Shown here: piece by piece, positions 1,997 to 37,195 of the stretch
Layout: each line of letters starts with the position of its first letter
Numbering within the stretch: the stretch's first letter is position 1
Source of the DNA: Candidatus Omnitrophota bacterium
GTDB lineage: Bacteria; Omnitrophota; Gorgyraeia; DAOVKU01
Reading direction: 5' to 3'
Length of the DNA stretch: 37,195 bases
Assembly: GCA_030631665.1 (NCBI GenBank)
Contig: DAOVKU010000002.1
Span: forward strand, 1 to 37,195
Notes under the pieces: generated by a model
What the model was told of the DNA's origin: nothing
Database searches by the model: none
The model's input: only the letters and a program-made list of their open reading frames with translations
Program-made: the position numbers and the translations under genes

Positions 1997-3706
1997 ATGC
2001 TTGATAATGGACGCATAATCGCTGAGACCCTAAAGAATTTAGGTATTATAAATGACTTACAGGTTAGCGAGGCTCTAAAAGTTCAAGCTGACACCAAGGA
2101 ACGTCTCAGCCAAGTCTTATCAAAGTTAGGTTATATCTCAAATGAGAATTTAGCTAAATCCCTCCTTCCTCAATTCGGAATTATCCCTTTAGAAATTTCA
2201 AAATATGACTTTGAAGCGGACTTGATAGCTAAAATTTCGCCTGAGTTAACAAAATGTCATCGCCTTATTCCTTTAGAGAAAACAGACTCCACGCTTAAAG
2301 TAATTACCGATGACCCCTTTAATTTTTTGGCTCTCAGCAATCTGGAAAAATTTTGTGGAGAGCATTTAGAACTTGAATTAACCACTAAGGAAGAATTTGA
2401 TAAGGCCTTTGAAGGAATTTACGGCAAGAAGAAAGTCAATGAAAGAGATATAGATATAATGGTTGATAAAATCGGCAAACAGACTTTGTCTGTCGGAGAA
2501 GAGGCTATTTTAACGCAAGAAAAAGTGCCCAAAGAAGAAGCACCTATTATAAGACTGGTCAGTCTTTTAATAACGGAAGCTGTTAAAAACAGGGCTTCTG
2601 ATATACACATTGAACCGCTGGAGAAAAAGCTTCGCGTCCGCTATAGAATTGATGGTGTCCTGCACGAAGTGCCGGGTCCACCTCAGAAATTGCGTGGTTC
2701 GGTTATTAGCCGCATCAAACTTATGGCTGGCCTTGATATTGCCGAAAAGAGACTTCCCCAAGATGGCCGAATTAGGATTGGTCTTTTAGGAAAAAAGCTT
2801 GATTTGAGAGTTTCGACCTTGCCTGGTATTTACGGAGAAAGCACTGTCTTGAGAATACTCGATAAATCGTCGCTTTTGATAGATTTAAGTGAGCTTGGTT
2901 TTTCATCGGAAGACCAACAGAAGTTTGAAGAACTTATTGCCATGCCTAATGGTATGATTTTGGTAACCGGCCCAACAGGTAGTGGAAAAACTACCACTCT
3001 TTATGCTGCCTTAAATAAGATAAATCAACCTAATAGAAAGATAATTACCATTGAGGATCCTGTAGAATATCAAATTTCAGGCATAAATCAAGTTCAGATT
3101 AAACCCCAGATAGGACTTACTTTTGCCAGCGGATTGCGGTCGATGTTAAGACAAGCACCTGATGTTATCCTGGTTGGAGAAATAAGGGATTTTGAGACTG
3201 CAACCATAGCTATTCAGGCTTCTTTGACCGGTCATTTGATTTTTTCTACACTTCATACCAACGATGCTGCGGGTGCAGTAACCAGATTGAGTGATATGGG
3301 CGTAAAGCCTTACCTGGTAGCTTCTACTGTACAGGCAGTTTTAGCACAGCGATTGATCAGGACTATATGCCAAGCTTGCAAAAAACCATATCAACCCACA
3401 GAAGATGAATTGGCTGCATTTGACCTCAAAGAAAAGGATGTCAAAAATATTACTTTTTATCACGGGACAGGATGCAGCGAATGCAGTCATACAGGCTATA
3501 AGGGGAGAATGGCTATGTTTGAACTTTTAATAGTAAGTGACCTTTTAAGAGAATTATTTTTTGAAAAGGTCTCCAGCAGTGTTATTAAAGATAAAGCCTG
3601 TGAGGCGGGCATGCGCACTTTAAGAAGAGATGGCATAAAAAAAGTATTTGCAGGTATAACCACTTTTGCCGAGGTAGTAAGAGTTACTCAGAGCGATATA
3701 GAATAA
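1997..3706 (+). CDS. pilB: PilB/GspE-family hexameric assembly ATPase, copy 1
   Basis: 569 aa. N-terminal T2SSE_N/MshEN-like helical domain; Walker A GPTGSGKTTT; Walker B/Asp box DVILVGEIRD; His box TGHLIFSTLHTND; tetracysteine CQAC...CSEC. Confidence 0.9.
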   Translation: MLDNGRIIAETLKNLGIINDLQVSEALKVQADTKERLSQVLSKLGYISNENLAKSLLPQFGIIPLEISKYDFEADLIAKISPELTKCHRLIPLEKTDSTLKVITDDPFNFLALSNLEKFCGEHLELELTTKEEFDKAFEGIYGKKKVNERDIDIMVDKIGKQTLSVGEEAILTQEKVPKEEAPIIRLVSLLITEAVKNRASDIHIEPLEKKLRVRYRIDGVLHEVPGPPQKLRGSVISRIKLMAGLDIAEKRLPQDGRIRIGLLGKKLDLRVSTLPGIYGESTVLRILDKSSLLIDLSELGFSSEDQQKFEELIAMPNGMILVTGPTGSGKTTTLYAALNKINQPNRKIITIEDPVEYQISGINQVQIKPQIGLTFASGLRSMLRQAPDVILVGEIRDFETATIAIQASLTGHLIFSTLHTNDAAGAVTRLSDMGVKPYLVASTVQAVLAQRLIRTICQACKKPYQPTEDELAAFDLKEKDVKNITFYHGTGCSECSHTGYKGRMAMFELLIVSDLLRELFFEKVSSSVIKDKACEAGMRTLRRDGIKKVFAGITTFAEVVRVTQSDIE

Positions 3707-4800
3707 TGACGAATTTAAATAAATTGTTAGAGATTTGTATTGAAGAAAACGCTTCTGACCTCCATTTAACCGTTGGGAAACCGCCGACTTTAAGAGTGGA
3801 TGGCAGGCTTAAATTAATAGAGGAAATTCCCCTTTCGGCAGAAGAAACTGAAGCTCTAGTTAAGGATATTACACCACAGGACCATTTAAAAAAAATAGAG
3901 GAAGTGGGCGGGGATGATTTTGGTTTTACTTTTAAGGAGAAAGTAGCCAGGTTCAGGGCTTCAATTTATAAACAAAAGGGTTTTTACGGACTTGCCCTGC
4001 GTTTAATTCCTTCCGAGCTGTTAACCTTTGAAGAAATTGGCTTGCCGGATATTATTAAAGATTTAATGTTTCGGCCAAGGGGGTTGGTACTTGTTACCGG
4101 GCCTACCGGTTGCGGAAAAACGACTACCCTGGCTTCTATGACTGATTTCATAAATGTAAACAGGGATTGCCATATTATCACCATTGAAGATCCCATTGAG
4201 TATTTTCATGAGCACAAAAAATCCATTATTACCCAGCGTGAAGTTGGCCGGGATGTGTCTTCCTTTACAGAAGCTATTGTCAGGGGCCTTCGTTCAAATC
4301 CGGATGTTATCCTGGTAGGCGAAATGAGAGACCTGGCGACAATGAAGGCCGCCATTATGGCCGCTGAAACCGGGCATCTGGTTTTTGCTACCCTGCATAC
4401 CAACAGTGCCGCCCAGACAGTTGATAGGATAATAAATGTTTTCCCCCCCAGCGAGCAGGAGCAGATTAGAATTCAGCTGTCAACTTCTATCCTGGCTATT
4501 CTTTGCCAGCAACTTTTAATAAAGACTGGTGAAAAGGGAAGGATGGCGGCTTTTGAATTGATGTTTACCACGTCTTCTATTCAGAGCTTGATCAGAGATA
4601 AAAAAAATTTTAGAATTACTTCTGAGATACAAACAGGTGCCAAACTTGGCATGAAAACCTTTGATACTTCTTTATATGAACTTGTCAAAAAAGGCATAAT
4701 TTCAAACCAGACAGCTTTAGAGAAAGCCTTTGACCCGGAAACACTCATAGCCAGATTGGAATCTGAAGAAAAAGGGGACAGACACCTTTTTAAGCATTAA
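3706..4800 (+). CDS. pilT: PilT-type retraction ATPase
   Basis: 364 aa with no N-terminal extension. GPTGCGKTTT, DVILVGEMRD, TGHLVFATLHTNSA, and a PilT-type C-terminal motif SIQSLIRDKK (AIRNLIRE-like). The start overlaps the upstream stop (TAATG). Confidence 0.9.
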   Translation: MTNLNKLLEICIEENASDLHLTVGKPPTLRVDGRLKLIEEIPLSAEETEALVKDITPQDHLKKIEEVGGDDFGFTFKEKVARFRASIYKQKGFYGLALRLIPSELLTFEEIGLPDIIKDLMFRPRGLVLVTGPTGCGKTTTLASMTDFINVNRDCHIITIEDPIEYFHEHKKSIITQREVGRDVSSFTEAIVRGLRSNPDVILVGEMRDLATMKAAIMAAETGHLVFATLHTNSAAQTVDRIINVFPPSEQEQIRIQLSTSILAILCQQLLIKTGEKGRMAAFELMFTTSSIQSLIRDKKNFRITSEIQTGAKLGMKTFDTSLYELVKKGIISNQTALEKAFDPETLIARLESEEKGDRHLFKH

Positions 4801-4805
4801 AAATA

Positions 4806-6515
4806 ATGAAGGAAATAAAACATAAACTCATCGGACAGATTTTAAAAGAACAAGGTTTAATTAGCCAGAAGCAATTAGACCAGGCGCTTGCAGAACAGAA
4901 AGTGGCCGAAAAACCCCTGGGCAGGGTTTTGGTTGATATGGATTTTATTACAGAGCAGGACCTTCTCAAGGTGCTTGGTATACAGACCGGCATGAAAGTA
5001 ATAGATATTAAAAATAAGGATATTCCCAAGGAAGCGGTAGAAAAAGTTTCTGCTTCCATAGCTAAGATTTATAATGTTATGCCTGTTAGTTTTGAAGGCA
5101 ATACTTTGACTGTTGCTGTTTCCGATCCGCTTAATATAAACATACTGGATGATTTGATATTTATGCTTGGGGTTAATGTCAAAGGCGTTATTGCCAGCGA
5201 AAAAGATATTCAGGAAAAAACTAACAAATATTATGCAGGTAAAGGTGACTCTATTGGTGAAATAGTGGACGAAATTGAGACCAAAATACCGCAGATTACC
5301 ACAGCAGTTAAAGGCAAGGACGCTAGCAGTCTCCAGGAATTAGCCAGTCAGGCCCCGGTGGTAAAATTGCTTAACCTGGTGCTCTTGCAGGCCATAAAAG
5401 ATAAGGCCAGTGATATCCACTTTGAACCATTCGAGGATGTCTTTAAGATTAGATACAGGGTGGATGGGATTTTATATGAAATTACTCATCCGCCAAAATC
5501 GTTGAGTCTGGCTGTTAGTTCCAGGATAAAGGTTATGGCAAATCTTGATATTGCTGAAACAAGATTGCCCCAGGATGGTCGCATTATGATGAATATCGCC
5601 GGCCATAGTGTTGATTTGCGTGTTTCGACCTTACCGACTGTTTTTGGAGAAAGCGTGGTTATGAGGGTTCTTGACAGGAGCGTGGTTAGTTTGTCAATTG
5701 ATGAAATTGGTATGCTTGATGATACAAAAAAGAGATTGCTTAGCCTAATTAGTAAACCCAATGGGATTATTCTGTCAACCGGCCCCACCGGATGCGGCAA
5801 AACCACCACCCTTTATTCCTGCCTGAGGATTATTAATAAAATAGATTATACAATTATTACCACCGAAGACCCTGTTGAATATGATATTCCGGGTATTATT
5901 CAGGTGAACATAAAACCGAAGATAAATCTAACCTTTGCTACCTGCCTGCGTCATATCCTGCGACAGGACCCGGACATTATTATGGTGGGCGAAATTAGAG
6001 ACCCGGAGACAGCACAGATAAGTATTCAAGCCTCTTTAACCGGACATCTTGTTTTTTCTACTTTACATACCAATGACGCTCCCGGTTCTATTACCAGGTT
6101 GATAGATATGGGAGTCGAACCTTTTTTAATAACCTCTACCCTGGAAGCTGTAATTGCCCAGAGACTTGTCAGAACCATTTGTCCGGATTGCAAAACAGAA
6201 TACACGCCTGACGAAAAAGAATTATCTCAACTTGACCTGACACCCAGGGACGTAGAGGGTAAGAAATTTTATTACGGTAAAGGTTGTAAGAAATGCAACG
6301 GCATTGGCTGTCGAGGCAGGACCGGAATATTTGAAATCTTGATGATAGACGATAATATAAGACCTATTATTATTGAGCGTTCTTCAACAGCCGCCATAAG
6401 AGAAGCGGCTCGAGAAGGAGGAATGAGAACTTTAAGAGAAGACGGACTTGCTAAAATCTATGATGGGATAACGACTATTGCAGAAGTAATTAGAGAAACA
6501 CAGGGATACGCATAA
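4806..6515 (+). CDS. pilB: PilB/GspE-family hexameric assembly ATPase, copy 2
   Basis: 569 aa. T2SSE_N/MshEN-like N-terminus, GPTGCGKTTT, DIIMVGEIRD, TGHLVFSTLHTND, CPDC...CKKC. It is a clear but divergent paralog of 1997..3706. Confidence 0.9.
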   Translation: MKEIKHKLIGQILKEQGLISQKQLDQALAEQKVAEKPLGRVLVDMDFITEQDLLKVLGIQTGMKVIDIKNKDIPKEAVEKVSASIAKIYNVMPVSFEGNTLTVAVSDPLNINILDDLIFMLGVNVKGVIASEKDIQEKTNKYYAGKGDSIGEIVDEIETKIPQITTAVKGKDASSLQELASQAPVVKLLNLVLLQAIKDKASDIHFEPFEDVFKIRYRVDGILYEITHPPKSLSLAVSSRIKVMANLDIAETRLPQDGRIMMNIAGHSVDLRVSTLPTVFGESVVMRVLDRSVVSLSIDEIGMLDDTKKRLLSLISKPNGIILSTGPTGCGKTTTLYSCLRIINKIDYTIITTEDPVEYDIPGIIQVNIKPKINLTFATCLRHILRQDPDIIMVGEIRDPETAQISIQASLTGHLVFSTLHTNDAPGSITRLIDMGVEPFLITSTLEAVIAQRLVRTICPDCKTEYTPDEKELSQLDLTPRDVEGKKFYYGKGCKKCNGIGCRGRTGIFEILMIDDNIRPIIIERSSTAAIREAAREGGMRTLREDGLAKIYDGITTIAEVIRETQGYA

Positions 6516-6582
6516 GAAATTGTCAGCTAAGGCATGCAGTCAAAGTTGACAGATGAAAATTGAAAGTTAAGAGAGGAATTAA

Positions 6583-7860
6583 ATGTTAGTTTTTCAGTAT
6601 CGGGCAGTGGATAAGACAGGAGGAAAAAAAGAGGGCACGATTGAAGCTAAAGATGCAACTGATGCCGTAAATCGTATCAAGAATCTTGGTTATTATCCTA
6701 CGCATATAACAGAAAGCAAAAAACCGATTAGAAAAGAGCGTGAAGAAAAAAGAACTACTGGTAGAAAGAAAAAATCTGCACTCACAGGTTACCTGAAAAT
6801 TCCTTTTTTAGGAATTGGCACGGTAAAGAGCAAAGAAGTAGTTCTTTTTACCAGACAACTATCTACCTTAATAGATGCAGATTTACCACTTGTTAGAAGT
6901 CTGATTGTGCTTAGAGATCAGTTAAAACCCTGTGCTATGAAGGATGTAATCACTCAGCTGGCAAAGGATGTTGAGTCAGGCAGTACCCTTTCTGAATCCA
7001 TGTCTCGCTTTCCGCGTGTTTTTTCCAAACTTTACTTGAATATGATCAGGGCCGGTGAGGTAGGCGGTGTTTTGGAAGTTGTTCTTGAAAGATTAGCAGA
7101 TTTTAGCGAGAAGTCCCAGCGCCTGGCTAGCCGTATTCGTTCAGCCCTGGCTTATCCCGCCTTCGTGGTATTAATTGCACTTTCGGTTTTGGCGTTTTTG
7201 ATAACTTTTATCGTGCCCCGTTTTATGGAAATATTTACCGAACTTGGAAGCGAGCTGCCGGTTTTAACGATGATGCTTTTGAATTTGAGTTCTTTATTCA
7301 AAAGCAAATGGTATATTGGTATAGGCATAATAGTAGGTTTGGTTTTAGGTTTTAAATTACTTTATCGAAACCAGAAAGCAAAAATTTTTGTAGATAATTT
7401 TAAATTAAAAGTACCTGTTGTCGGCCTCTTGATTCGCAAAGTTTCCGTGGCGCGATTTACCCGCACACTGGGCACTTTAATTTCAAGCGGTGTGCCCATC
7501 TTACAAGCTTTAAACATTACCAGAGATACTGCAGGTAATGAAGTTATCGCCCGGGCCATTATGAGAGTCCACGATTCTATAAAAGAAGGTGAGTCCATTG
7601 CAAAGCCTCTTCAGGCCAGCGGAGTTTTTCCGCTCATGGTTGTTAATATGATAGATGTAGGAGAGGAAACAGGTTCTCTTGATAACATGCTGATTAAAAT
7701 AGCCGATACTTACGATGAAGAAATTGACACCACCGTCAGCGCCTTAACGTCTTTACTTGAACCTCTGTTAATAGTCTTTATGGGTGTTATTGTCGGTTTT
7801 ATTGTGGTGGCTATGTTCCTACCCCTGGTAAGTCTAATGGGCGCCTTAGGCGCAGGTTAA
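6583..7860 (+). CDS. pilC: PilC/GspF-family inner-membrane platform protein
   Basis: 425 aa with two T2SSF-type repeats and three hydrophobic segments. Typical motifs: FTRQLSTLIDADLPLVRSL and FTRTLGTLISSGVPILQAL. RBS GAGAGGA lies upstream. Confidence 0.9.
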   Translation: MLVFQYRAVDKTGGKKEGTIEAKDATDAVNRIKNLGYYPTHITESKKPIRKEREEKRTTGRKKKSALTGYLKIPFLGIGTVKSKEVVLFTRQLSTLIDADLPLVRSLIVLRDQLKPCAMKDVITQLAKDVESGSTLSESMSRFPRVFSKLYLNMIRAGEVGGVLEVVLERLADFSEKSQRLASRIRSALAYPAFVVLIALSVLAFLITFIVPRFMEIFTELGSELPVLTMMLLNLSSLFKSKWYIGIGIIVGLVLGFKLLYRNQKAKIFVDNFKLKVPVVGLLIRKVSVARFTRTLGTLISSGVPILQALNITRDTAGNEVIARAIMRVHDSIKEGESIAKPLQASGVFPLMVVNMIDVGEETGSLDNMLIKIADTYDEEIDTTVSALTSLLEPLLIVFMGVIVGFIVVAMFLPLVSLMGALGAG

Positions 7861-7917
7861 TTATCTAGATTAATTGCCATAGACAAAAAAATGCTTTATT
7901 CTTACTGTTTTTTCCCC

Positions 7918-7961
7918 TTGACAAAAATAGGTACAGCTGGTATATTTGAAGGGCTTCAAAT
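7918..7961 (+). promoter_or_regulatory. Promoter plus operator-like inverted repeat upstream of giant gene 1
   Basis: TTGACA (7918..7923), 17 nt, TATATT (7941..7946). This runs directly into the inverted repeat ATTTGAAG-GG-CTTCAAAT (7944..7961). The same layout recurs at 29731..29773 and 30615..30656. Confidence 0.55.
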
Positions 7962-7987
7962 TTTAAAAGAGAGAAAGGGGTTTTAAA

Positions 7988-10900
7988 TTGAGAAAAAAAA
8001 TTATTTTTTTAATAGTCTTAATTCTCGGCTGTTTGAATATTACAGGCCTCATTGGAGCCCAAGATCAGGAGACTTATCTCTATGTTCTTAACCCACAGGA
8101 ACCCAACTTAAAAACGTGGCCTACCGGTTGGGGCAATGAACCGGATGAAGTTTCTGCCAGGATTTCTGATGGAAATGTGGTTGTTAGAGGCATTCGGGAA
8201 GAGCAGAGTTTCGGGGCGCTTCATAAAAATATATGTGTTGATTTTGAAAAGTACTCCTATCTTGAAATTGAAGTTAGCCGGGCTGCCAACTGTTGGTATA
8301 TAATTTTTAGTGGTCCTGAATTTGAAAATGGTTTTATAAGAATTCAGAAAGACACCGAAAAAACAGGAAAATTTAAATACAACCTCTGGAATTATCCCCA
8401 GCTCAGGAACAAAATGGAATTTGATATTCAAATTGGAGTGAGCGCTCCCGGGAAAAGCGGACAGAAAGATGTGGAAATGGTTTTCGGAAACCTGCGTTTT
8501 GTTGATACAGGGCGCCGGCGTCCTTTAAAAGGACCGAAATTGATTAGGCGCAATTTACCCCAGCCTATACTGAATGCCAATTACGATTTACCCAAGCCGC
8601 AGATTTCCAGAATTGTTTTTCTATCTTCACACAAGCAGGCTCCAGGGAAAGATTTTTATAAACCTAAGAAAAATATTTTTGAGATTTTCGCAAGACGCGA
8701 ATTGCCTGTTGAAACTCCAATTTCCAGACCGGTTTTTAATGATACAGGCAAAGAAACAATAAGCATTGAAAGCGATTGTTATAAGCTTATTTTCAGCAAG
8801 AAAAATGGCGCATTTCTGGGCATTAAAGATAAAGTAAAAAATGAAATTATATCTGTAGGTTCTGTGGATGGAATTTTATGGCGTCTTAATTTTCATAAAA
8901 GAAAAAGCATAAGCAATAAAGATTTTGATTCTGATTCAAAAGAGAGGCCTTTTAAATATAAATGGAAAAAGTCAAAAAAGCAGCTTTTGTTTTCTTATGA
9001 AGATAAAACCACAGATTTTAAGTTTACAATAACTATTTGCGCCTCAAAGGAAAACTATATAGATTTTAAGACAGAGATTAAAAATACCTACGAGCAGCCC
9101 ATTATTTTAGTTAATTTTCCCAAAGGGCTTACTTTTAAACTTGAGAAATTGAAACGTTTTATTTATCCTTTCCGAGGCGGTCTGGCTTTTAAGCCAGGTT
9201 TTTTTTTAGAAAGGCGTTATATATCTGAGTCACAATATCTTTTTAGCGATTATATAGCAGTAGAATTTGAGAATAGCAATTTATCTTTATATACCATACA
9301 AAATCCCAAGTGCTGGACACAGGCTACCATGAGCGCTGGCTATGATTCATATCAGGGAGGAGCGGGGTTTTATACTTATGCCCAGGCGACCTACATTAAA
9401 AGTAGTTCACGCTGGCGCAGCCCTGTCATTAGGATGCGCATTGGAGAGCCAACGGAAGAAAGCATACAGCATTATATAGAAGATAACGCCCTGAATAAAA
9501 TACCCGATCTTAATAAAAGAATTAGTAAGGATTTATTTTATAAATTATCTAAATCGGTTTTATTAAAATTTGACTTTGTCTGGATAGGTCAAAGTTTTAA
9601 AGAGGTGAAAGAGTTTATTGAAAAATTACCTTCGCCTACCCTTATTCACCCGGTAACTTTCTGGGACAAGGGATTCGATAAAAATTATCCTGATTACCTG
9701 CCGCCCAATGAAGATTTTGGAAGCCAGGAAGATTTAAGAGAGTTGGTTGAAGCAGCACGTGAATTGGGTGATTTGGTAATGCCCTATACCAACCCTACCT
9801 GGTGGAATGAAAGCGTAACTTTAGAAAAACTGGGAAAAGAAAATATTGCTGTTATAAAACTCGATGGCCAGATTCACGGTGAGTGCTACTGGGGAGTAAA
9901 CTGGGGCATAATTACCAGCCCCCATCATCCGCAGGTTATCAAGAGAACCCAGCAGACCGTCCGTGAATTTAAATATGACATACCTTGTGATATCCTTTTT
10001 GAAGACCAGCTGGGCTCCAGACCCTGGCAGTATGATTTAAATCCAAGAGCGAGGGGAGTAAATTTTTATAAACAGGGTTTGATAGATTTTGCTCGAAGGG
10101 ATTCGAAGCAAATCCCTGTTATGTGCGAAGGCGGATTTGACGGGTTGATGCCATACGTGATTGCTTTTTCTGATTTATCGGTTAACAATGCTCTTCCGCC
10201 GGATGAGACTTTTAATAGTTGGTATGGCAAAGGTAACTGGGAAGTATTTCCCTATGCTTTATATGTAGCGCATAATAAAAATGGTTTTTATCAGCACAAT
10301 CTTGCACATGAAGTTTTTACTAATTCAAAAGAACAGCTTACCTGGAATATGGCCTATGGGCATAATTTAAATCAGGGTTATTGGCCGGCTGCCTGGGAGA
10401 AAGAGCAGAAAAAATGGTTCTATATTGATGATGCCTTCCAGAAAGCTGTGGCCTGCCGTTTCTTTGGGAAGAAATTAACTGATTTTCAAAGGATGGGCAA
10501 GGAGATTACTTTTAGCCGTTTTGAAGACATAGGTATAGTTGCGAACCATTCCAAAGTCACGCCATATGAGATAGAAGGTTTTCTCTTACCGCCGGGCGGT
10601 TTTCTCGCCAAATCACAAGATGACAGTTTAGTAGCCGGTATATTCGATGTTTTTAATCACGACCTTTTAGCTGATGAGCACTTTATTATTGTAGAGAAAG
10701 AACCGGACAAAATCATAGTCAAGCAACCCGATGCAAAGAAGACTTTAATCAGTCTTAAGCGGCCGGACGCCTGGGATATGGCTGATAGGATTAATGTAAT
10801 TTGTGGGGGCCAACAGGTGCCGACGGCTGTGTCTGAAGACAAAATAACTTTCCTTTATGATTCTGCAGAAATTAATAGTAAGTATATATTAAATTATGAT

Positions 10901-16467: not shown

Positions 16468-16473
16468 AGAATT

Positions 16474-16536
16474 ATGAGCACTAAAAACGTTATTTTCGAT
16501 TTAGGCGCAGTGATTGTCGAAATCGTAAGGAATTGA
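16474..16536 (+). pseudogene. 20-codon micro-ORF resembling the N-terminus of a HAD-family beta-phosphoglucomutase (possible gene relic)
   Basis: It encodes MSTKNVIFDLGAVIVEIVRN. HAD motif I is normally hhhFDLDGV(I/L). Here the nucleophile-type Asp is present, but the second Asp and the Gly are replaced (FDLGAV), and the frame stops after 20 codons. Confidence 0.25.
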
Positions 16537-16553
16537 GAAACTATTTAAAACCT

Positions 16554-18839: not shown

Positions 18840-18868
18840 TTGACGAAAATCTAATTTCTTGATAAAAT
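18840..18868 (+). promoter_or_regulatory. Sigma70-like promoter for the ABC transporter operon
   Basis: TTGACG (18840..18845), 17 nt, TAAAAT (18863..18868), 35 nt upstream of the TTG start. RBS AAGGA at 18891..18895. Confidence 0.45.
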
Positions 18869-18902
18869 TAAATTACCACAAAATTAATTTAAGGAAAAGA
18901 GA

Positions 18903-21194: not shown

Positions 21195-21200
21195 AATTTT

Positions 21201-28510: not shown

Positions 28511-28540
28511 ACTATGTATAAAAATAGAGGGCAAAAGAGT

Positions 28541-29080: not shown

Positions 29081-29135
29081 GAGGATAAGCAATACACAAA
29101 GATTTAACTAACTAATTTTAGAAAAAGGAGTTGAG

Positions 29136-29687
29136 ATGTCTAAAATCAACTTAGTAATTTATAGTGTAGTATTAATAATTTCTTTAGTGTTTGCTTATAC
29201 AGTGCATTGCGAGAAAGGTGCTATAGATATTTTTAAAGCTGAGAATGAAAATATAAGTGATTGGCATGAAGGTTGGGCAGGTGAACCCATAGAAGCAACT
29301 ATTGAAATAAAAAAGGATGAAGCTATTATTGAAGGTGCAACACAAGATAAAGCTTTTGGCAGCGTTCATAAGAACATGACCATAGATTTAGATAGATACT
29401 CTGTAATAAAAATTGATGTGAAGTCGGTTAGCTACTATTGGTATTTAATTGTCAGCGGAGAACAATTTCATTTTGACCCCACCAATCCAAGATTAGCTGA
29501 TGGCTATGCTCTCTTACAAGAATCAACTAATAAAACCGGGAAATACAAATATGACCTTAAAAAAATTACCGGTTTATCCGGTAAACAAAATTTTGATTTA
29601 CAAATTGGCGTGGGAAGATTTAGTGGAGACGGTAATATAGGTTGCAAAGCGGTTATTAAAAGTTTAAGGTTTATTCAAATAGATTAA
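29136..29687 (+). CDS. Small secreted protein, A-type module (183 aa)
   Basis: RBS AAGGAG. N-terminal hydrophobic signal. KAFGSVHKNMTIDLDRYSVIKIDVKSVSYYWYLIVSG, NKTGKYKYDLKKITGLSGKQNFDLQIGV, LRF. This is the closest relative of the giant-1 N-terminal module. Confidence 0.85.
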   Translation: MSKINLVIYSVVLIISLVFAYTVHCEKGAIDIFKAENENISDWHEGWAGEPIEATIEIKKDEAIIEGATQDKAFGSVHKNMTIDLDRYSVIKIDVKSVSYYWYLIVSGEQFHFDPTNPRLADGYALLQESTNKTGKYKYDLKKITGLSGKQNFDLQIGVGRFSGDGNIGCKAVIKSLRFIQID

Positions 29688-29730: not shown

Positions 29731-29773
29731 TTGACAGGTTATTTTTTATCTGTTAATATTGAAGCGCTTCAAT
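29731..29773 (+). promoter_or_regulatory. Promoter plus perfect 16-bp palindromic operator upstream of the PEP-CTERM gene
   Basis: TTGACA (29731..29736), 17 nt, TAATAT (29754..29759), overlapping the palindrome ATTGAAGCGCTTCAAT (29758..29773). The ORF track's TTG 'start' at 29731 is this -35 box. Confidence 0.6.
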
Positions 29774-29823: not shown

Positions 29824-30396
29824 ATGAAAAAGTTAAAAAGTTGGTTGTTGTTGGTGAGTATTTTTATTCTCATCCCTCTTGGTGAGGCAAAGGCCACAAC
29901 GGTTGGGTTTGTGCCTAGTGATGGATCCGCTTCGATCGGTAGTAATTCTTATTTATATGTGGATATCCATGATGTGGAGAATTTGTGGTTTTTCGATATT
30001 GGTTTTAGCTTTGATCCAGATGTACTGCAGATAGCAAAGGGCCCTAAGGGTGATTATATAATTGGTAGTGGGGGATTTTTTGGTGAGAAGGACAGTGGAT
30101 TTAGTAAGAGCGGTAGTAATGTTGATGGGACAGTTGGAGCCGGGGAAAATATATTAGACCCGAATGATCCAGGTCAGTCGGGCAGTGGCACATTATTCAT
30201 AACAAAGTTTAACGCGGTGGGATTAGGAACTACTCCGCTTACTTTCTCCCATGTTACTTTATGGGACCCCGATATGAATGTTATTCCCTGTGAAGTAACG
30301 AACGGCACTTTTACGGTTATCCCCGAATTGACCAGTCTCTTGTTACTTGGTACGGGGTTGGTGTGTTTACTCGGCTTGAAAAGAAAGAGCTGTTAA
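29824..30396 (+). CDS. PEP-CTERM-anchored cohesin-like domain protein (190 aa)
   Basis: ATG 29824. Signal peptide ...PLGEAKA|TTV. Cohesin-like blocks: YLYVDIHDVENLWFFDIGFSFDPDVLQI and GSGTLFITKFNAVGLGTTPLTF. C-terminal sorting signal IPELTSLLLLGTGLVCLLGLKRKSC (PEP-like motif, TM helix, basic tail). Confidence 0.8.
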   Translation: MKKLKSWLLLVSIFILIPLGEAKATTVGFVPSDGSASIGSNSYLYVDIHDVENLWFFDIGFSFDPDVLQIAKGPKGDYIIGSGGFFGEKDSGFSKSGSNVDGTVGAGENILDPNDPGQSGSGTLFITKFNAVGLGTTPLTFSHVTLWDPDMNVIPCEVTNGTFTVIPELTSLLLLGTGLVCLLGLKRKSC

Positions 30397-30614
30397 ATAT
30401 GAGAGCTTGCAATCTTAGGTTCATTTTTGCCGCGTTAATTTTCTCAAAATGTTAAACTTAAATAATTAGTAGAGAAAATTCTTATACCATATTGCAATTT
30501 CTTTCAATTTTTGATATATTTCCTGCTCCGGCCGGGAGAAAGTATAAACTTCAACATAAATTACCTTGTAGGCAAAGATGATTGGGAAAGGGCAGTAAAA
30601 GACAAAATTTTTTC

Positions 30615-30656
30615 TTGAAAGGGTTTATTTTCAAGTTATAATTGAAGCGATTTAAT
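30615..30656 (+). promoter_or_regulatory. Promoter plus degenerate copy of the same operator upstream of giant gene 2
   Basis: TTGAAA (30615..30620), 16 nt, TATAAT (30637..30642), overlapping ATTGAAGCGATTTAAT (30641..30656). The left half-site is identical to that at 29758 and the right half matches 5/7. The upstream A/T tract AAAATTTTTTCTTGA also parallels 29718..29735. Confidence 0.5.
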
Positions 30657-30702
30657 TTTTAGTTATTCATAAATAAAAATTAGTTGAGAAGAAGGAGTAA
30701 AA

Positions 30703-33700
30703 ATGAAAAAATTCCTATTACTTGGTTTAGTGGCTGGTTTTTTTGCGTTGAATCCTTTTTTGGCTCAAGCGACCGTTTGGACAGAGGATTTTAGCGATGT
30801 AAGTGATTGGTCAGCTGCCGAAGGAACCACTTTTACCAGTGATGGTTCCGCAGCTAGATTAGAGGATCTCTCTGATGGTACGGGTTGTACTACCTGGATA
30901 GGTACCAGAGTTTCCTACCAACAAGGGGATTTTGTATCTTTAACTGTAAGCGATATCGATTCTCTTCAAGGCGCCCAGTGGTATTATATAATCCATCAAT
31001 ATAATAATGCTGGGAGTTACATAGGCCAATTAGACGTTTTTCCTCCTTCGACTGATATAGGTATTTTTAATAGTTACTTAACTGCTCACCATCCCGATCT
31101 TGCTAGTTACGACCCGCAACTAAGGATTTATACTCCTGGTGGCAGTACAGGTTACGCTGAGTTTGACGATTTATCTGTTGTTCCGGCCGATGATGTAACT
31201 TTTATCACCTTTGATAATTTTGATTCTCACAAGTGGATTCCTCTTCCAGAACTTGATCCACCAAAACAACCCACCATTTCTTATTCTCCGGCTTATGCCA
31301 GTCAGGGGACGAATGCCTTGAAAGTCGAGTGTCCTGTTTGGGACCCTTTGATAGAAAATAACTTTACCGGCCTTCAAATTTCTCCCCAAATTCCGTCCAA
31401 TCCAGGTGCATCTGTATCTGAAGACTGGAGTAATATTGAAACCTTTAAAATGGAAGCTTGGTTAGAAGAGATTCCGGATGATCCCCCTGGAATGGTTTTG
31501 AGGCTCCGTAATAGTAATGGTGAGCAATGGGACAAATGGCACGTGGTTCAGATTTATAATCGCTGGAACGAACTAAGTTGGAATGTTACCGATTGTCCTT
31601 CACATATTATTAGTGATGTCGCCTACGTAGCTTTAGTGCCGGATTGGTACAACGACCAGACTTTACCTCATTTGACTTTACATTTAGATGATATGAGATT
31701 GTCTAAAAGCGATGGCTCTCAGGAATCATGGGACACTTGTGATGGACCTTCGCATGCCTGGTATGCTGATAGTAATGGCAGTCGAGCCGGATTGACTCAT
31801 AATGATGCCTATTTAACAGAAGCAGGTTCTCTATTCTTGGGATGGTTATATGGGGGCATAGATAATGTGGCTGTGGCTAATTCTGGAAGTATTGACCCGG
31901 CCCTCGATATCTACGGATGTAAGTATGTCAAGGCTAACATTAAATGTTCAAATAAAAATGTTCCTATCAGTCTATCTTTCTACGATGGAAGCGTGGAGAT
32001 TGAAACCACTACCCAGACAGTCAGCGTAGCCAATAATTGGAGCTTACTTGTCTGGGCAATTCCTTTTGATTCTACGTTTAATTATAAAAATATTCAAAGA
32101 GTAAAAGTGATAACTAATGATATTGATGTCTATACCGATGCCTACATCTATATGGATAATTTAAAATTTGGAGCAAACATTACTACACCTACCCAATTTA
32201 CTATTGTATCTGGTGATGAAAAGAATAAATTATACTGGCGCAACCCTGCCAACCCTGACTTGGTTGGCATAGAAGTTATAAGAAATACGGCCCACTATCC
32301 GACCTCAAGAACAGATGGCACCTCAATTTATAATAGCACTCTTGAAGAAAGAGAGGATTACCGTTCTTTTGAAGATGCATTATTAACTAATGGCACCACT
32401 TACTACTATAGTATTTTTGCCTATGATGCCTCTGGGGATAATGACCCAGCCCAAAATTTTGGGCGACCAAATTTCCCCATTATTATCAGTAATGATTATT
32501 ATGAAATAAGCCTATCGGCTCACAATGGCTCTATGGAATATATTAAAGACAAAACCACTCAAGAGAATATTATTATCAATTCTCCTAATAGGGCCTTGTG
32601 GGAAATTCTTTTTGATGAAAACGAAAGGCATGATGCTTCAGAGTTTTCATCTATTTCAAGCGAAAAAAACTTTTCTTATAGTACAGGAGGAAATACGCAT
32701 ACCCTGGTTTATGATTATAACGTGGATGGAGAACAATTTAGTATTGTAATAACCATAGAACAAACCGATAGCAATTACTTTGATGTGATGACTCAAATTA
32801 ATAATCACTTTGGCAAAGGTATCCAGGAGATAAAGACTAAATTTTATTTAGACCGTAGCCAGGTGAAACGCTTTTTTTATCCATACAAAGAAGGCATTTG
32901 TTACCTAAAACAGTTCTTTACGGATAAGATGAAGGCCTGGGTTAATCCTAAAGATAATAAGGCTATCTATCAGCATTTGTTTGCTGATTTTGCTGCCTTA
33001 GAGACTGATTCGGGAAGCAATATCACCTTTTATATGATACAGAGTTCTACTGAGAGATTTCAACCGACCGCCCTTATAATCGATTACGATGAATTATTTG
33101 GAGACGTCAATTATTACTATCAGCATAAGTTTTTCACCTATATTTATAATGATACTTCCTGGACAAGCCCGACTTACCGGATTAGAGTGTCTTCTCCTTT
33201 GGATACTACCGTTTATGACTATGCTGCTGATAACGCATTAGATTCGCCTGTTACTCTGGAAAGCAAAGTCAGAGATACTTATGCTTATGACCCTGACTTA
33301 TACGATAAATTAAAAAACAGTATCTTTGTTAAGACAGGGTTCTACGATATGATTGAACAGCTCAGCATTGACTCACACGATATCTTTAACTATGTTGCTA
33401 ATACCTTAATGCCGATGTTACCCTCTCCATGCATTTTGACCGTAACTCATTACTGGCTACCTTTGGATGATAGCCCTGATGCCGTAATTGAATTTACAGA
33501 AAATAACCAGCCGGATGCTCTGCCTCCGAGCCCATACTATTCTTCCGGCAATACTTACGAAAGCGCAGAACAGGAATTTCAAAATATATTTGATAAAGCT
33601 CATGAAAGAAACATTTTGGTATCACCATTTTCTAATTCTACTGTATGGAACGACTTGGACGAATATACAGATGCACAAAGAGAAGGTGTCGCCAAGCGTT

Positions 33701-36700
33701 ATTTAGACGGAGGATTTACCGTCACTGACTTTGGCCAAAAAGGAGGATATATCTCTAGTCCATGGCACCCGGATGTTAAAGTAGTTAATAGAAGGACGAT
33801 TGAAGGTATCGGCTTTTTTAACGACCCCAGCGACCCAATGTATGACCCTGGCAGTCCATACAATGAAGCAGGTTATAAAGGCTATAGAGAATATGGCGCA
33901 GATGTCTTATTTGAAGACCAGATGGCAGCCAGACCTTGGGATTATGACACAAACGATTCCGTACCTTACCTTGAGGACTATCCAACTTTGAAAGATTACA
34001 CTGCCTACGGCGAAGGAATGTTAAGGATGGCTGAGGAAGACTGCCAGCGGATGCCGATATTTACCGAAGGTTTGTGGGACAGAATGATTGACTTTATGTA
34101 TGGCTTTTGTGGTTCTATTATAGAGAAGCACTGGCACTTAGACAAAAATCACCAGAGAGACAGTAAGTATTCGCACTGGGGCCCTGAGTTTGAAAATTGG
34201 GAAATGTATCCTATGGCAAACCTATTAACACATCATAAAGTTGCTTTTTACCAACATAACCTTACTTACTGGACCTTATTCTGCAATAAAGAACCTGAAG
34301 ACAGCAATAGAAACCTGCTTACCTATGACGCTGTTTATGGATATAATTTAGGATTTGTTGTGGTAGAGCCCGTTACTGAGACCAATTTAGGCTGGTTAAG
34401 AGTTGGCGACGCTTATCAGAAGGCGCTTTTATCCAAGACCTTTGGCAAAAAGATGATTGATTTTCACAACATAAACGGAAACAACAAACACGTCCAGAGC
34501 CAGTTTGAGAGCGATTCAGGCACAATTACCATCATAGGTAACTTCTATGAGGATGTTACTTATGATATGGGAGATTATACACTTTCGCCACTTGGATTTA
34601 TAGCTACCAGTGAAAATGGAGATTTAGTTGCCGGTGTATTTTCTAATGAATTTAATAACGCCCTTCTTTCAAGCGGCGAACATTATCTAATTGTAGAAAA
34701 ATCAGCCGATGGAAACATAATAACTGTCAAGCAACCCAGAGGAACCGATACAGCTTTAATTATTGATAGGCCCAGCGATTGGATAAATGACAATGAGATT
34801 TATTTGCTCAAAGTTCTGTCTAATGGCACAGAGTTGTTAGGTGACTTTACTAATAAAACAGCAACTACACTTGAATTTGATTTTAATGTCACTGACCCTG
34901 TTAGCGGATATAGCGTCAATGGATATAAAATTTATGGCAATCAGTCTTCTTCTATAAAGCCACCTTTCTTTATATCAGTGCCACAAGCAAGAAGTGCAGG
35001 TCCGACTTCGGAGAAGATAACCTGGATGACAGATGAAGCGGCGAATAGCCTTGTAGAATACGGCACAACAATCAGTTATGGTTCAACTGTAAGCGACGCC
35101 AACTATGTAACTGACCACCAAATAATTATAACAGGTTTAACAGAAAGTCAAACTTATCATTATAGAGTTCAGTCTACAGATGTTGATGGGCATACTGCCA
35201 CTAGTGGTGATTATACTTTTGTAGTTGGTGGCACAGCCTGGCAAGAACATTTTGATCCGGCAAAATCTACCTGGGTAGAACAAGGAATTACACTAACGGA
35301 TGAACCAGGTACAACAGCCACCTTGACCGAAAGCGACCCTGTCAATAGTTATGGAAAAGCCGAATCTGAACTGATTACCTTAGATGTTGATACCTATTCT
35401 AAATTATTGGTCACCTCAACCGCTGTAGATACTGACTGTAACTATACCATCCAAATTCAAGAAGAGGGTGGTGCCTATGCTTCCAAGAACGTCATCGAAG
35501 GTATCACTCAACCCGGCACTCAAGTTGTTAATATTGCTACTGTGATGGGATGGAGCGGGGTAATGTCATTTAAGATAGGTGTTTGGGTTGATGGAGAAGG
35601 AAAAAGTGTAGTTCTGGATCTAATTGAAATAAAAGAAGCTGACAGTAATTCTCCTGTCATTACCTCAGGCCCTGGTGTCAGCCCCGGAGATACACAAGCC
35701 ACTATTATTTGGACAACGGATGAAGAAGCCGATAGTGTGGTTGAGTATGGCTTAGATGCTAATTATGGCTCTAGTGTTTCAGATACTGCCATGGTTATAG
35801 ATCACTCTCTGCAATTAACCGGCTTAACAGCCAATATTTTGTATCATTATAGAGTAAAATCCACAGATCCTTTTGGTAATACTGTCACCAGTAGTGATTA
35901 CACTTTTACTACTTTAGCTGGTGGTACAGCCTGGCAAGAACATTTTGATCCAGCAAAATCTACCTGGGCAGAACAAGGGATTACACTAACGGATGAACCA
36001 GGTACAACAGCCACCTTGACCGAAAGCGACCCGGTCAATAGCTATGGAAAATTAGAATCAGAAGTTATTACCTTAAGCTTATCTGCCTACCCTCAATTAA
36101 TTATTACTTCCACAGCTATAGATGAGAACTGTAGTTATCATATAGGCATCCAAGAAGAAGGCGGGGCTTACGCCTATAAGAATGTTCTTGAGGGCATTGC
36201 TCAACCCGGCACCAACGTAGTTGATATTGCTTCTGAAATGGGTTGGAGCGGCACCAAATCCTTTAAGATAATTATCTGGATAAATGGTGAGAGTAAATCC
36301 GCTGTCTTTGATCTTATCAGTATCGGAACTACCACAACAGCTTGGATAGAACATTTTGATCCTATCAAGCCCAGCTGGAACGAAGCAGGAGCCACCTGGA
36401 ATGATATCACCGGCACTACCGCCATACTTACAGAGAATGATCCCGTACTTAGTTATGGCAAGGTTGAGTCCGAAGTTATTACTTTAGATTTATCTACTTA
36501 TCCTCAATTAGTAGTTTCCACAACCTCAATAGATACTAACTGTAGTTATAATATAGGAATCCAGGAAGAAGGCGGGGCTTATGTTTATAAAAATGTATTG
36601 GAAGGCGTTTCTCAGCCTGGCAGTAATGTAGTAGACCTTGCAGCTGAAATGGGTTGGAGCGGACTAAAATCATTTAAGATAGTTGTTTGGGTAAACGGTG

Positions 36701-37195
36701 AAAGCAAGTCTATCACCTTTGATTTTATTAGTGTAGGAACTGAGACTGCAGCTTGGTGTGAAGATTTTAATCCTATAAAACCAAGTTGGAACGAGGTTAG
36801 TGCTACTTGGAACGATATAGTAGGCACCACAGCCATTTTAACCGAAAGCGACCCCGCAGTTAGCTATGGCAAAGTCGAATCAGAAATTATCACCTTAGAT
36901 TTATCTGTATATCCTCAATTAATAGTGACTTCGACAGCTATAGATGAGAACTGTAGTTATCATATAGGCATCCAGGAAGAGGGTGGTGCTTATGCTTATA
37001 AGAATGTGATGGAGGACATTACCAAACTTGGCACCAACGTAGTTGATATTGCAACTGAAATGGGTTGGAGCGGCACCAAATCCTTTAAGATAGTTATCTG
37101 GGTTAATGGAGAAAGTAAATCTGTTACCTTTGACCTTATTAGTGTAGGAACTGAGACTGCAGCTTGGTGTGAAGATTTTAATCCTATAAAACCAA
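30703..37195 (+). CDS. Second giant secreted multi-domain glycan-active protein, 3'-truncated by the window edge (at least 2164 codons); absent from the ORF track
   Basis: ATG 30703 lies 5 nt after GAAGGAG. I translated frame 1 codon by codon to 37194 and found no stop. Signal peptide MKKFLLLGLVAGFFALNPFLAQA|TVW. Domains by eye:
- B-type module
- two jelly-roll CBM-like modules
- FN3
- the same uncharacterised catalytic-like core as giant 1
- two PAP-N-type FN3 domains (W.TDE..S.VEYG...YHYRV.S.D)
- at least 5 copies of a 137-aa module. Confidence 0.9.
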   Translation, partial: MKKFLLLGLVAGFFALNPFLAQATVWTEDFSDVSDWSAAEGTTFTSDGSAARLEDLSDGTGCTTWIGTRVSYQQGDFVSLTVSDIDSLQGAQWYYIIHQYNNAGSYIGQLDVFPPSTDIGIFNSYLTAHHPDLASYDPQLRIYTPGGSTGYAEFDDLSVVPADDVTFITFDNFDSHKWIPLPELDPPKQPTISYSPAYASQGTNALKVECPVWDPLIENNFTGLQISPQIPSNPGASVSEDWSNIETFKMEAWLEEIPDDPPGMVLRLRNSNGEQWDKWHVVQIYNRWNELSWNVTDCPSHIISDVAYVALVPDWYNDQTLPHLTLHLDDMRLSKSDGSQESWDTCDGPSHAWYADSNGSRAGLTHNDAYLTEAGSLFLGWLYGGIDNVAVANSGSIDPALDIYGCKYVKANIKCSNKNVPISLSFYDGSVEIETTTQTVSVANNWSLLVWAIPFDSTFNYKNIQRVKVITNDIDVYTDAYIYMDNLKFGANITTPTQFTIVSGDEKNKLYWRNPANPDLVGIEVIRNTAHYPTSRTDGTSIYNSTLEEREDYRSFEDALLTNGTTYYYSIFAYDASGDNDPAQNFGRPNFPIIISNDYYEISLSAHNGSMEYIKDKTTQENIIINSPNRALWEILFDENERHDASEFSSISSEKNFSYSTGGNTHTLVYDYNVDGEQFSIVITIEQTDSNYFDVMTQINNHFGKGIQEIKTKFYLDRSQVKRFFYPYKEGICYLKQFFTDKMKAWVNPKDNKAIYQHLFADFAALETDSGSNITFYMIQSSTERFQPTALIIDYDELFGDVNYYYQHKFFTYIYNDTSWTSPTYRIRVSSPLDTTVYDYAADNALDSPVTLESKVRDTYAYDPDLYDKLKNSIFVKTGFYDMIEQLSIDSHDIFNYVANTLMPMLPSPCILTVTHYWLPLDDSPDAVIEFTENNQPDALPPSPYYSSGNTYESAEQEFQNIFDKAHERNILVSPFSNSTVWNDLDEYTDAQREGVAKRYLDGGFTVTDFGQKGGYISSPWHPDVKVVNRRTIEGIGFFNDPSDPMYDPGSPYNEAGYKGYREYGADVLFEDQMAARPWDYDTNDSVPYLEDYPTLKDYTAYGEGMLRMAEEDCQRMPIFTEGLWDRMIDFMYGFCGSIIEKHWHLDKNHQRDSKYSHWGPEFENWEMYPMANLLTHHKVAFYQHNLTYWTLFCNKEPEDSNRNLLTYDAVYGYNLGFVVVEPVTETNLGWLRVGDAYQKALLSKTFGKKMIDFHNINGNNKHVQSQFESDSGTITIIGNFYEDVTYDMGDYTLSPLGFIATSENGDLVAGVFSNEFNNALLSSGEHYLIVEKSADGNIITVKQPRGTDTALIIDRPSDWINDNEIYLLKVLSNGTELLGDFTNKTATTLEFDFNVTDPVSGYSVNGYKIYGNQSSSIKPPFFISVPQARSAGPTSEKITWMTDEAANSLVEYGTTISYGSTVSDANYVTDHQIIITGLTESQTYHYRVQSTDVDGHTATSGDYTFVVGGTAWQEHFDPAKSTWVEQGITLTDEPGTTATLTESDPVNSYGKAESELITLDVDTYSKLLVTSTAVDTDCNYTIQIQEEGGAYASKNVIEGITQPGTQVVNIATVMGWSGVMSFKIGVWVDGEGKSVVLDLIEIKEADSNSPVITSGPGVSPGDTQATIIWTTDEEADSVVEYGLDANYGSSVSDTAMVIDHSLQLTGLTANILYHYRVKSTDPFGNTVTSSDYTFTTLAGGTAWQEHFDPAKSTWAEQGITLTDEPGTTATLTESDPVNSYGKLESEVITLSLSAYPQLIITSTAIDENCSYHIGIQEEGGAYAYKNVLEGIAQPGTNVVDIASEMGWSGTKSFKIIIWINGESKSAVFDLISIGTTTTAWIEHFDPIKPSWNEAGATWNDITGTTAILTENDPVLSYGKVESEVITLDLSTYPQLVVSTTSIDTNCSYNIGIQEEGGAYVYKNVLEGVSQPGSNVVDLAAEMGWSGLKSFKIVVWVNGESKSITFDFISVGTETAAWCEDFNPIKPSWNEVSATWNDIVGTTAILTESDPAVSYGKVESEIITLDLSVYPQLIVTSTAIDENCSYHIGIQEEGGAYAYKNVMEDITKLGTNVVDIATEMGWSGTKSFKIVIWVNGESKSVTFDLISVGTETAAWCEDFNPIKP
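32476..34962 (+). other. Uncharacterised catalytic-core-like region, copy in giant protein 2
   Basis: LPSPCILTVTHYW, ISSPWHPDV, DVLFEDQMAARPWDYD, MPIFTEGLWD, FYQHNL and HYLIVEKSADGNIITVKQP match giant-1 blocks in the same order. Confidence 0.65.
35233..37195 (+). repeat. In-frame tandem coding array of the 137-aa B-type module
   Basis: Module starts (GC(C/T) TGG = AW) fall at 35236, 35929, 36340, 36751 and 37162. The first interval is 693 bp (module plus FN3). The others are exactly 411 bp. The array runs off the window end. Confidence 0.9.

Follow-up and report, generated by a model that had tools for sequence, protein, structure and literature searches.

Introduction

Polysaccharide utilisation loci (PULs) of the ATP-binding cassette (ABC)-importer type, also called 'Gram-positive-type' PULs, are found in Firmicutes, Bifidobacteria and Thermotogae/Caldicellulosiruptor. 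They unite exported multidomain enzymes carrying binding modules, a solute-binding protein with two permeases, a LacI regulator with a palindromic operator, and cytoplasmic glycosidases or phosphorylases, all encoded on one strand. The SusC/SusD PULs of Bacteroidota and the cellulosomes similarly join surface binding, extracellular cutting, import and regulated expression. In the Omnitrophota, giant genes have been reported to be flanked by type II secretion system (T2SS) or type IV pilus (T4P) genes, binding-protein transporters and glycoside hydrolase (GH) genes. The giants described by West-Roberts et al. reach at least 30,000 amino acids, are preceded by a T2SS-like locus of more than 10 genes and are followed by pilZ (10.1101/2023.11.21.568195; 10.64898/2026.06.07.730766). 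Here we analyse contig DAOVKU010000002.1 of a Candidatus Omnitrophota bacterium from the South China Sea Site-F cold-seep metagenome (SAMN18200499). The window is this whole contig of 37,195 nucleotides. It encodes two very large exported proteins, giant1 and giant2, together with small exported proteins, an oligosaccharide importer, phosphorylases, a LacI-family repressor and a short pil/gsp gene cassette.

The window shares the layout of the ABC-importer-type PULs described above: its exported enzymes carry predicted glycosidase-type domains, an importer, a regulator and cytoplasmic enzymes accompany them, and the linkage recurs in relatives. It differs from those loci in that its enzyme family, Pfam DUF6259, and its N-terminal leader module have no characterised member, that the host is a diderm omnitrophote, that anchoring apparently relies on PEP-CTERM-type tails and not on sortase or S-layer-homology domains, and that the operator is present only at the exoenzyme and anchor promoters. 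We hold with moderate confidence that the window carries a LacI-regulated, ABC-importer-type PUL of Candidatus Omnitrophota, which is built on the uncharacterised DUF6259 and from which the pil cassette is separate.

An earlier reading of the same DNA, made without database searches (hereafter the sequence-only reading), had described a surface glycan-harvesting apparatus that is neither a SusC/D PUL nor a dockerin-based cellulosome. This distinction is correct, as no TonB-dependent transporter or SusD was found among the 19 window proteins and no dockerin or cohesin in the window. Its further statement that no system of this composition had been described holds only for the parts. The broad pattern is already known from the ABC-importer-type PULs and the published Omnitrophota giant-gene neighbourhoods, while the novelty lies in the DUF6259 enzymes, the leader modules and the operator. 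Like the published giant-gene loci, the window comes from the Omnitrophota and has GspE/GspF-type genes before a large exported protein, with transporter and GH genes after it. Unlike them, it encodes proteins of ~2,500 amino acids with other domains, holds four pil/gsp genes and no PilZ gene, and its pil–giant adjacency is not kept in the nearest syntenic loci. The locus provides a DUF6259 glycosidase-like fold with candidate catalytic residues, a soluble cytoplasmic paralogue that ought to lend itself to expression, and a metabolic context made up of the importer, three phosphorylase families and the repressor with its operator. The existence of new families of glycoside hydrolases and binding modules thereby becomes directly testable.

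The two giants share a core with a predicted glycosidase fold

The core common to both giants is DUF6259, which spans ~700 amino acids. In a self-BLAST of the window proteins, residues 258–929 of giant1 aligned with residues 593–1360 of giant2 at 28% identity (E 1.5e-78). This bears out the proposal that two exported proteins of more than 2100 amino acids (2488 and >2164) have a core in common. The predicted cytoplasmic copy of this core is g12, a protein of 697 amino acids, which hhalign aligned with the giant core over 566 columns (probability 99.4%, E 2e-21). Judged by this profile comparison, g12 is a distant branch of the same DUF6259 family.

The AlphaFold model of the core (predicted local distance difference test, pLDDT, 90.7; predicted template modelling score 0.91) consists of an N-terminal β-sandwich, a (β/α)8 barrel and a C-terminal β-sandwich. 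The best Foldseek matches were the GH129 structures 5opq (E 5e-32) and 5wzr (E 6e-25), both with a TM-score of ~0.7, and GH101, GH36 and GH31 ranked after them. All four are families of retaining α-glycosidases. DUF6259 shares with them (GH129 includes the Bifidobacterium α-N-acetylgalactosaminidase NagBb and the Zobellia 3,6-anhydro-D-galactosidase) the three-part predicted fold, and has an invariant Asp and Glu on predicted barrel strands, but its sequence identity to them is only 9–15%. Searches of the DUF6259 proteins by sequence against Pfam and the PDB gave no match to the four families, the likeness being at the level of the fold only, and g12 and giant2 matched no solved structure. The acidic residues that stay the same across the three window copies and their homologues correspond to D668, D673 (followed by Q674) and E714 of giant1, around which the motifs DxLFEDQ and TEGG are found. 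D673 and E714 lie within predicted β-strands of the barrel and are candidate catalytic residues. The model thus lends support to the earlier description of the core as catalytic-like, in the form of a credible glycosidase fold.

At E ≤1e-3, the DUF6259 family comprises 2406 representatives (clusters at 50% identity). In a genome scan, it occurred in Omnitrophota, Elusimicrobiota, Chloroflexota, Planctomycetota, Armatimonadota, Verrucomicrobiota, Acidobacteriota and Bacteroidota. Some representatives of ~1,550–1,650 amino acids (P0060, P0061, P0064 and others) match the core profile in two stretches, which suggests enzymes with two catalytic domains.

Both giants begin with a signal peptide that is visible in the sequence. 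In giant1, it is followed by a type-A leader (residues 25–178), the core (nucleotides 8759–10774), a β-sandwich region, a GH99/GH71-like domain (residues 1585–1932) and a duplicated C-terminal domain. The GH99/GH71-like domain scored 66 bits against GH99 (PF16317, cutoff 33) and 52.6 bits against GH71. The GH99 catalytic motif EWHE, which holds the E333/E336 pair, reads DFAE in giant1, with Asp instead of the first Glu and the second Glu retained. A direct repeat of 270 nucleotides (12104–12373 and 14819–15088, 94% identical) sits within a wider duplication (residues 1201–1562 and 2104–2467, 52% identity) that brackets a segment of ~905 amino acids holding the GH99/GH71-like domain. Because this segment is missing from the orthologue in a related Omnitrophota locus, L009, and the bracketing repeat is still 94% identical, the data suggest that the domain was recently gained by insertion and duplication. 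Giant2 carries a type-B leader (residues 23–164), the core, FN3-like units and tandem leader-like repeats. Its C-terminal array (35209–37134) contains at least four tandem repeats of 411 nucleotides (137 amino acids) that run to the window end, begin with W-x-E-x-F-x-P...W and resemble the type-B leader module.

The leader modules also occur as free-standing exported proteins

The sequence-only reading had noted free-standing copies of the leader modules. We found that g15 and g17 match the N terminus of giant1 (E 3.5e-16 and 7e-28) and that g16 matches the N terminus of giant2 (E 6e-5); types A and B are weakly related to each other. Searches of g15–g18 against Pfam, NCBIfam and the PDB returned nothing significant. 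The AlphaFold2 model of g17 (pLDDT 84) is a β-sandwich, and most of its best Foldseek matches were carbohydrate-binding modules (CBM70, 8, 86, 4, 29, 11 or 16) or a Bacteroides surface glycan-binding protein, with modest E values of 1e-3 to 1e-4. According to this model, the leader modules are probably carbohydrate-binding β-sandwiches of a new binding-module family.

The next protein, g18, had been taken for a PEP-CTERM cohesin-like anchor. Its tail, IPELTSLLLLGTGLVCLLGLKRKSC, is hydrophobic and basic and PEP-CTERM-like, but it is degenerate, with IPE-L in place of VPEP and a score of 13.4 bits against the Pfam cutoff of 20.7 (PF07589). In L009, the PEP-CTERM protein passes Pfam with 28.8 bits and represents a giant2-type leader fused to a genuine PEP-CTERM signal. 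The likeness to cohesin received no support: Pfam gave no cohesin or dockerin match in any window protein, with g18 scanned to E 10, and the sole PDB scaffoldin match had an E value of 0.52. Beyond binding carbohydrate, the leader modules could conceivably build a multi-enzyme complex that is tethered to the cell surface without cohesin or dockerin. In it, the free, PEP-CTERM-fused and enzyme-borne copies would interact to keep the DUF6259 giants on the cell, the adjacent T2SS/T4P-type machine would export the giants, and glycans would be stripped from a host or prey cell. We regard this scheme as a long shot.

A putative operator marks the exoenzyme and anchor promoters

The palindrome TTGAAGCGCTTCAA, which has a central CG, occurs at 7946, 29759 and 30642 with one, zero and two mismatches, respectively. 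With ≤2 mismatches, three sites were observed in the window, compared with ~0.13 expected by chance (~0.006 for ≤1 mismatch), while with ≤3 mismatches the matches were not above chance (3 observed, 2.7 expected). The significance of the operator thus comes from the counts at ≤2 mismatches and from its fixed position relative to the −10 element, since the first base of each of the three sites is the final T of the −10 hexamer in a good σ70-type promoter. The same operator is present in L009 (four sites, one mismatch each) and in a further related locus, L090 (three sites, two mismatches each), always in intergenic DNA. Six of these seven sites begin within a −10 hexamer or immediately behind it, and the seventh is a second site downstream; over the three loci, this position is kept by 9 of 10 sites.

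In both L009 and L090, one operator precedes lacI itself, with a weaker second site after it. The helix-turn-helix of LacI differs very little between g13 and the L009 and L090 orthologues. Because the operator precedes lacI in two relatives, we infer that the repressor family binds it and is putatively autoregulated there. The earlier claim that the exported components share one operator applies to the giant1, g18 and giant2 promoters. It does not extend to g15–g17, which have no promoter of their own, and the importer promoter upstream carries no operator. The latter promoter is conserved in L009 and overlaps a second conserved block, TTGACGAAAATCnAAATTnCTTGATAAAnTTAAnTT (window 18840–18875; L009 9165 and 17902), which is found before the solute-binding-protein gene in both genomes and also before the giant in L009. 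This block may be a site for another regulator.

The glycan core is conserved in other Omnitrophota

A genome scan with a DUF6259 alignment identified Candidatus Omnitrophota metagenome-assembled genomes (MAGs) as the nearest genomic relatives of the glycan core, which fits the previous guess of an uncultivated diderm lineage. The MAG locus L009 shares ~12 genes with the window at 54–88% protein identity. Its order is LacI, a g15-like protein, a 189-amino acid protein, a g16-like protein, the PEP-CTERM protein, a 1578-amino acid giant, GH130, a HAD-family protein, GH65, the solute-binding protein, two permeases and the cytoplasmic DUF6259 protein. Partial versions were found in L090 (LacI, three small modules and a giant), in three ENA contigs (ERZ1426817/32/44, with GH94, a giant, a small module, the importer, cytoplasmic DUF6259 and three small proteins) and in the more distant genome L089 (GH94, LacI, cytoplasmic DUF6259 and a DUF6259 giant). 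Based on this synteny, the glycan core is a conserved unit. Together with the operator conserved in L009 and L090, it supports the view of a co-localised and co-regulated apparatus for the harvest of external glycans. The comparison of genomes that the sequence-only reading had called for had a divided outcome, as the glycan core is kept in relatives and the pil genes are not.

The window order appears to be rearranged. The non-coding spacer before giant2 contains 41 nucleotides left over from the 3' end of a giant1-type gene, which encode ESINFNINYLVGKDDWERAVKDK. Because the position of this relic matches the L009 order, in which the PEP-CTERM protein is followed by the giant, the window looks like a permutation of an ancestral, L009-like locus.

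In another Omnitrophota locus, L014, a PilZ-domain gene (1567–1968) is located just upstream of a small module and a giant, and a large protein with a T2SS-T3SS_pil_N domain (7288–10275) is encoded downstream of the giant. This neighbourhood recalls the association of pilZ with giant genes in the literature.

A separate pil/gsp cassette precedes the glycan locus

The PilB/PilT/PilB/PilC gene set named by the sequence-only reading is present at 1997–7860, so that the assembly ATPases, a PilT-type retraction ATPase and a platform protein are all encoded (three T2SSE domains and one T2SSF). Both large ATPases score above the NCBIfam cutoff for GspE and below that for PilB. In the window locus, we found no pilin or pseudopilin, secretin or alignment-protein genes of a T4P/T2SS machine, and no prepilin motif occurs in any frame of the window. 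The N terminus of the second ATPase matches the MshE-type cyclic di-GMP-binding motif (61.6 bits, cutoff 38), with the first ATPase just below the cutoff (33 bits), and the cassette may be controlled by cyclic di-GMP.

We compared the cassette with 80 metagenome loci around PilC relatives. The order PilB-PilT-PilB-PilC was found in 36 of the 37 loci with enough upstream sequence, and prepilin-type genes directly follow PilC in at least 46 of the 50 with enough downstream sequence; in L091 and L092, these are GspG-, GspH- and GspK-like pseudopilins followed by PilM. None of the 80 loci contains a giant gene. A GH94 gene upstream of the cassette was detected in a single locus, L091, which is also the closest to the window (83–90% identity). 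The DNA homology between L091 and the window ends ~10 nucleotides past the pilC stop codon, within the 127-nucleotide gap that separates pilC from giant1. An assembly chimera at this junction was considered and rejected, as a second scaffold from another assembly of the same sample (L171) spans it. Because the pseudopilin genes are missing in the window and the L091 homology stops just past pilC, the sequences indicate that a rearrangement put the pil cassette beside the glycan locus in this genome. We thus judge the pil/gsp genes to form the start of a T2SS/T4P-type cassette in its own right, one that is conserved widely and is not a conserved part of the glycan system. The cassette may still provide the export route of the giants, although nothing ties it specifically to the glycan locus.

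Proposed mechanism and alternative explanations

A working scheme for the PUL can be proposed. LacI (g13) would bind ATTGAAGCGCTTCAAT, which overlaps the −10/+1 region of three promoters, and keep the giants and the PEP-CTERM-like protein off. The importer, the cytoplasmic DUF6259 protein, LacI, GH94 and the small modules would be transcribed from the operator-free promoter and give a basal sensing capacity, and an imported oligosaccharide or a product derived from it would lift repression. Giant1 and giant2 would then be exported via Sec, with their N-terminal β-sandwich modules, and in giant2 also the tandem C-terminal ones, holding the enzymes on the substrate. There, the DUF6259 domains would cut an α-linked glycan, as their modelled fold suggests, with giant1 contributing a GH99/GH71-like domain of the endo-α-mannosidase or α-1,3-glucanase type. 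The g15–g17 proteins and the PEP-CTERM-type protein would bind glycans, either at the cell surface or after secretion. Products would enter through the binding-protein transporter and be trimmed by cytoplasmic DUF6259, and the GH65 (kojibiose-), GH130 (β-1,2-mannoside-) and two GH94 (cellobiose/chitobiose-phosphorylase-like) enzymes, going by their families, would yield sugar 1-phosphates and save ATP. Because of the core fold, the GH99/GH71-like domain and the GH65 enzyme, the substrate is probably α-linked.

Several observations weigh against our interpretation of the locus as a PUL with a separate pil cassette. DUF6259 has no characterised member, and neither it nor PF19773 was mentioned in the searched literature. 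A match to a glycosidase-like fold, here from a model, does not tell the linkage. The GH130 and GH65 proteins score below the NCBIfam equivalog cutoffs, and the closest phosphorylases that have been characterised suggest three disaccharides of different chemistry, which together do not point to any one known polymer. Distant DUF6259 homologues have mixed neighbours (GH97; GH13 with α-1,3-glucanase; GH94; or no carbohydrate-active enzymes), and the inference of a single substrate from these neighbours was rejected for this reason. The GH94 gene before the pil cassette in both the window and L091 shows some linkage of pil and carbohydrate genes in this sublineage. Enzymes of 240 kDa also need a machine for export across the outer membrane, for which a T2SS-type system is the obvious candidate, and the literature places T2SS/T4P genes beside Omnitrophota giant genes.

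The last points are also those that speak for a different arrangement, in which PilB/PilT/PilB/PilC would be a dedicated part that secretes, displays or moves the giants within one glycan-harvesting machine, as the sequence-only reading had proposed. The pil genes and giant1 are immediate neighbours on the same strand, their junction is real, both large ATPases resemble GspE, and GH94 genes flank the cassette in the window and in L091. The cassette has, however, its own promoter without operator. No PilB, PilT or PilC gene was found within 10 kb of any of 79 DUF6259 genome loci, L009 included, and none in L090; TldD/PmbA/ATP-grasp genes take their place upstream in L009 and L090. Conversely, 79 of the 80 PilC loci lack glycan genes, and the pseudopilins and PilM that usually follow PilC are missing here. 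We therefore consider the pil motor an improbable component of the system, and the adjacency of pilus or secretion genes to large genes is by itself no sign of a functional link.

Within the phylum, an attack on prey or host cells also has to be considered: the exported enzymes and modules would bind and digest surface glycans of other cells (cell wall, S-layer glycans or capsule), and the importer and phosphorylases would consume the sugars. The lineage is Omnitrophota, the published association of a giant gene with T2SS/T4P genes, a binding-protein transporter and GHs has been interpreted as degradation of prey cell walls, nearly the whole phylum has type-4a pili, which the literature links to attachment, and a PilZ gene stands beside the giant in L014; the GH99-like domain together with GH130, GH94 and GH65 could fit glycoprotein-type glycans. 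We nevertheless regard this explanation as unlikely, as the window giants are ~10 times smaller than the described giants and lack their reported hallmark domains, Pfam scans of the window proteins found no peptidoglycan-directed domains, a LacI–ABC importer–phosphorylase layout is typical of ordinary saccharolytic loci, and DUF6259 occurs widely among free-living Chloroflexota, Planctomycetota, Armatimonadota and Acidobacteriota. The locus could instead serve the cell's own glycans, with exported enzymes trimming its exopolysaccharide or capsule and phosphorylases recycling or building oligosaccharides. PEP-CTERM proteins usually accompany exopolysaccharide systems, and proteins of this type are present in the locus; phosphorylase reactions are reversible, and one distant DUF6259 homologue is encoded beside a Wzy_C/TPR protein. 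This possibility appears very improbable, since no glycosyltransferase, flippase, Wzx/Wzy or exosortase gene was found in the window or L009 and the importer and presumably sugar-responsive repressor point to catabolism. If the PUL interpretation is correct, an ordinary, regulated saccharolytic locus exists in at least part of the Omnitrophota, whose members are mostly discussed as predators or parasites.

Gene layout of the window

The features of the window are collected in Table 1, in which the rows follow the gene order. The sequence-only reading had reported ~35 kb of uninterrupted same-strand genes, and we confirmed 19 genes, all on the + strand, with a largest intergenic gap of 306 nucleotides; all open reading frames of at least 100 amino acids that are not nested inside another gene are on this strand. 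The frequent TTG/GTG starts also noted there are partly an artefact of choosing the longest open reading frame, as the L001 gene calls are shorter for g08, g13, g16 and g18. No tRNA was found in the window, and an Rfam scan of it revealed no riboswitch or other RNA.

Table 1. Coordinates of genes, promoters and other features in the 37,195-nucleotide window.
Feature	Position	Strand	Evidence or remark
GH94 phosphorylase, cut at 5' end	1–1872	+	Pfam Glyco_hydro_94, E 1.2e-104; 53% identical to g14 (self-BLAST)
Promoter of pil cassette, σ70-like, TTGACA-17-TAAAGT	1948–1976	+	no operator
PilB/GspE-like ATPase	1997–3706	+	Pfam T2SSE
PilT	3706–4800	+	Pfam T2SSE, PilT-sized
Second PilB/GspE-like ATPase	4806–6515	+	Pfam T2SSE, MshEN
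PilC/GspF	6583–7860	+	Pfam T2SSF
Promoter of giant1, TTGACA-17-TATATT	7918–7959	+	operator O1 TTGAAGGGCTTCAA at 7946–7959
giant1, 2488 amino acids, exported	7988–15454	+	Pfam, self-BLAST, models
GH130, cytoplasmic	15451–16467	+	nearest solved relatives: β-1,2-oligomannan and β-1,2-mannobiose phosphorylases
GH65, cytoplasmic	16533–18830	+	nearest solved relative: kojibiose phosphorylase 3wiq, E 1.1e-133
Promoter upstream of solute-binding-protein gene, TTGACG-17-TAAAAT	18840–18868	+	no operator; conserved in L009
ABC importer: solute-binding protein (probable lipoprotein) and two permeases	18903–22352	+	SBP_bac_1, two BPD_transp_1; hydrophobicity scan
g12, cytoplasmic DUF6259 protein, 697 amino acids, no signal peptide	22356–24449	+	Pfam DUF6259, E 1.8e-31
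g13, LacI-family repressor	24428–25483	+	Pfam LacI and Peripla_BP
g14, GH94 phosphorylase	25480–27918	+	nearest solved relatives: cellobiose and chitobiose phosphorylases
g15 (type A), g16 (type B), g17 (type A), free-standing exported leader-module proteins	27938–29687	+	self-BLAST
Promoter of g18, TTGACA-17-TAATAT	29731–29772	+	perfect operator O2 TTGAAGCGCTTCAA at 29759–29772
g18, exported, ~190 amino acids, degenerate PEP-CTERM-like tail	29824–30396	+	
Relic of 3' end of giant1-type gene, non-coding spacer	30545–30585	+	41 nucleotides, 85% identical to 15354–15394
Promoter of giant2, TTGAAA-16-TATAAT	30615–30655	+	operator O3 TTGAAGCGATTTAA at 30642–30655
giant2, >2164 amino acids, exported, cut by window end	30703–37195	+	Pfam, self-BLAST

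The three phosphorylase families, the LacI regulator and the single oligosaccharide ABC importer of the sequence-only reading were all recovered, the phosphorylases as two GH94 copies, GH130 and GH65, the regulator as g13, and the importer without an ATPase gene in the locus. The spacing of two phosphorylase genes differs between relatives. In L009, a HAD-family gene (14976–15638), probably encoding a β-phosphoglucomutase, lies between GH130 and GH65. It is missing in the window, where the two genes are separated by only 65 nucleotides that contain an inverted repeat (TTTCGA...TCGAAA).

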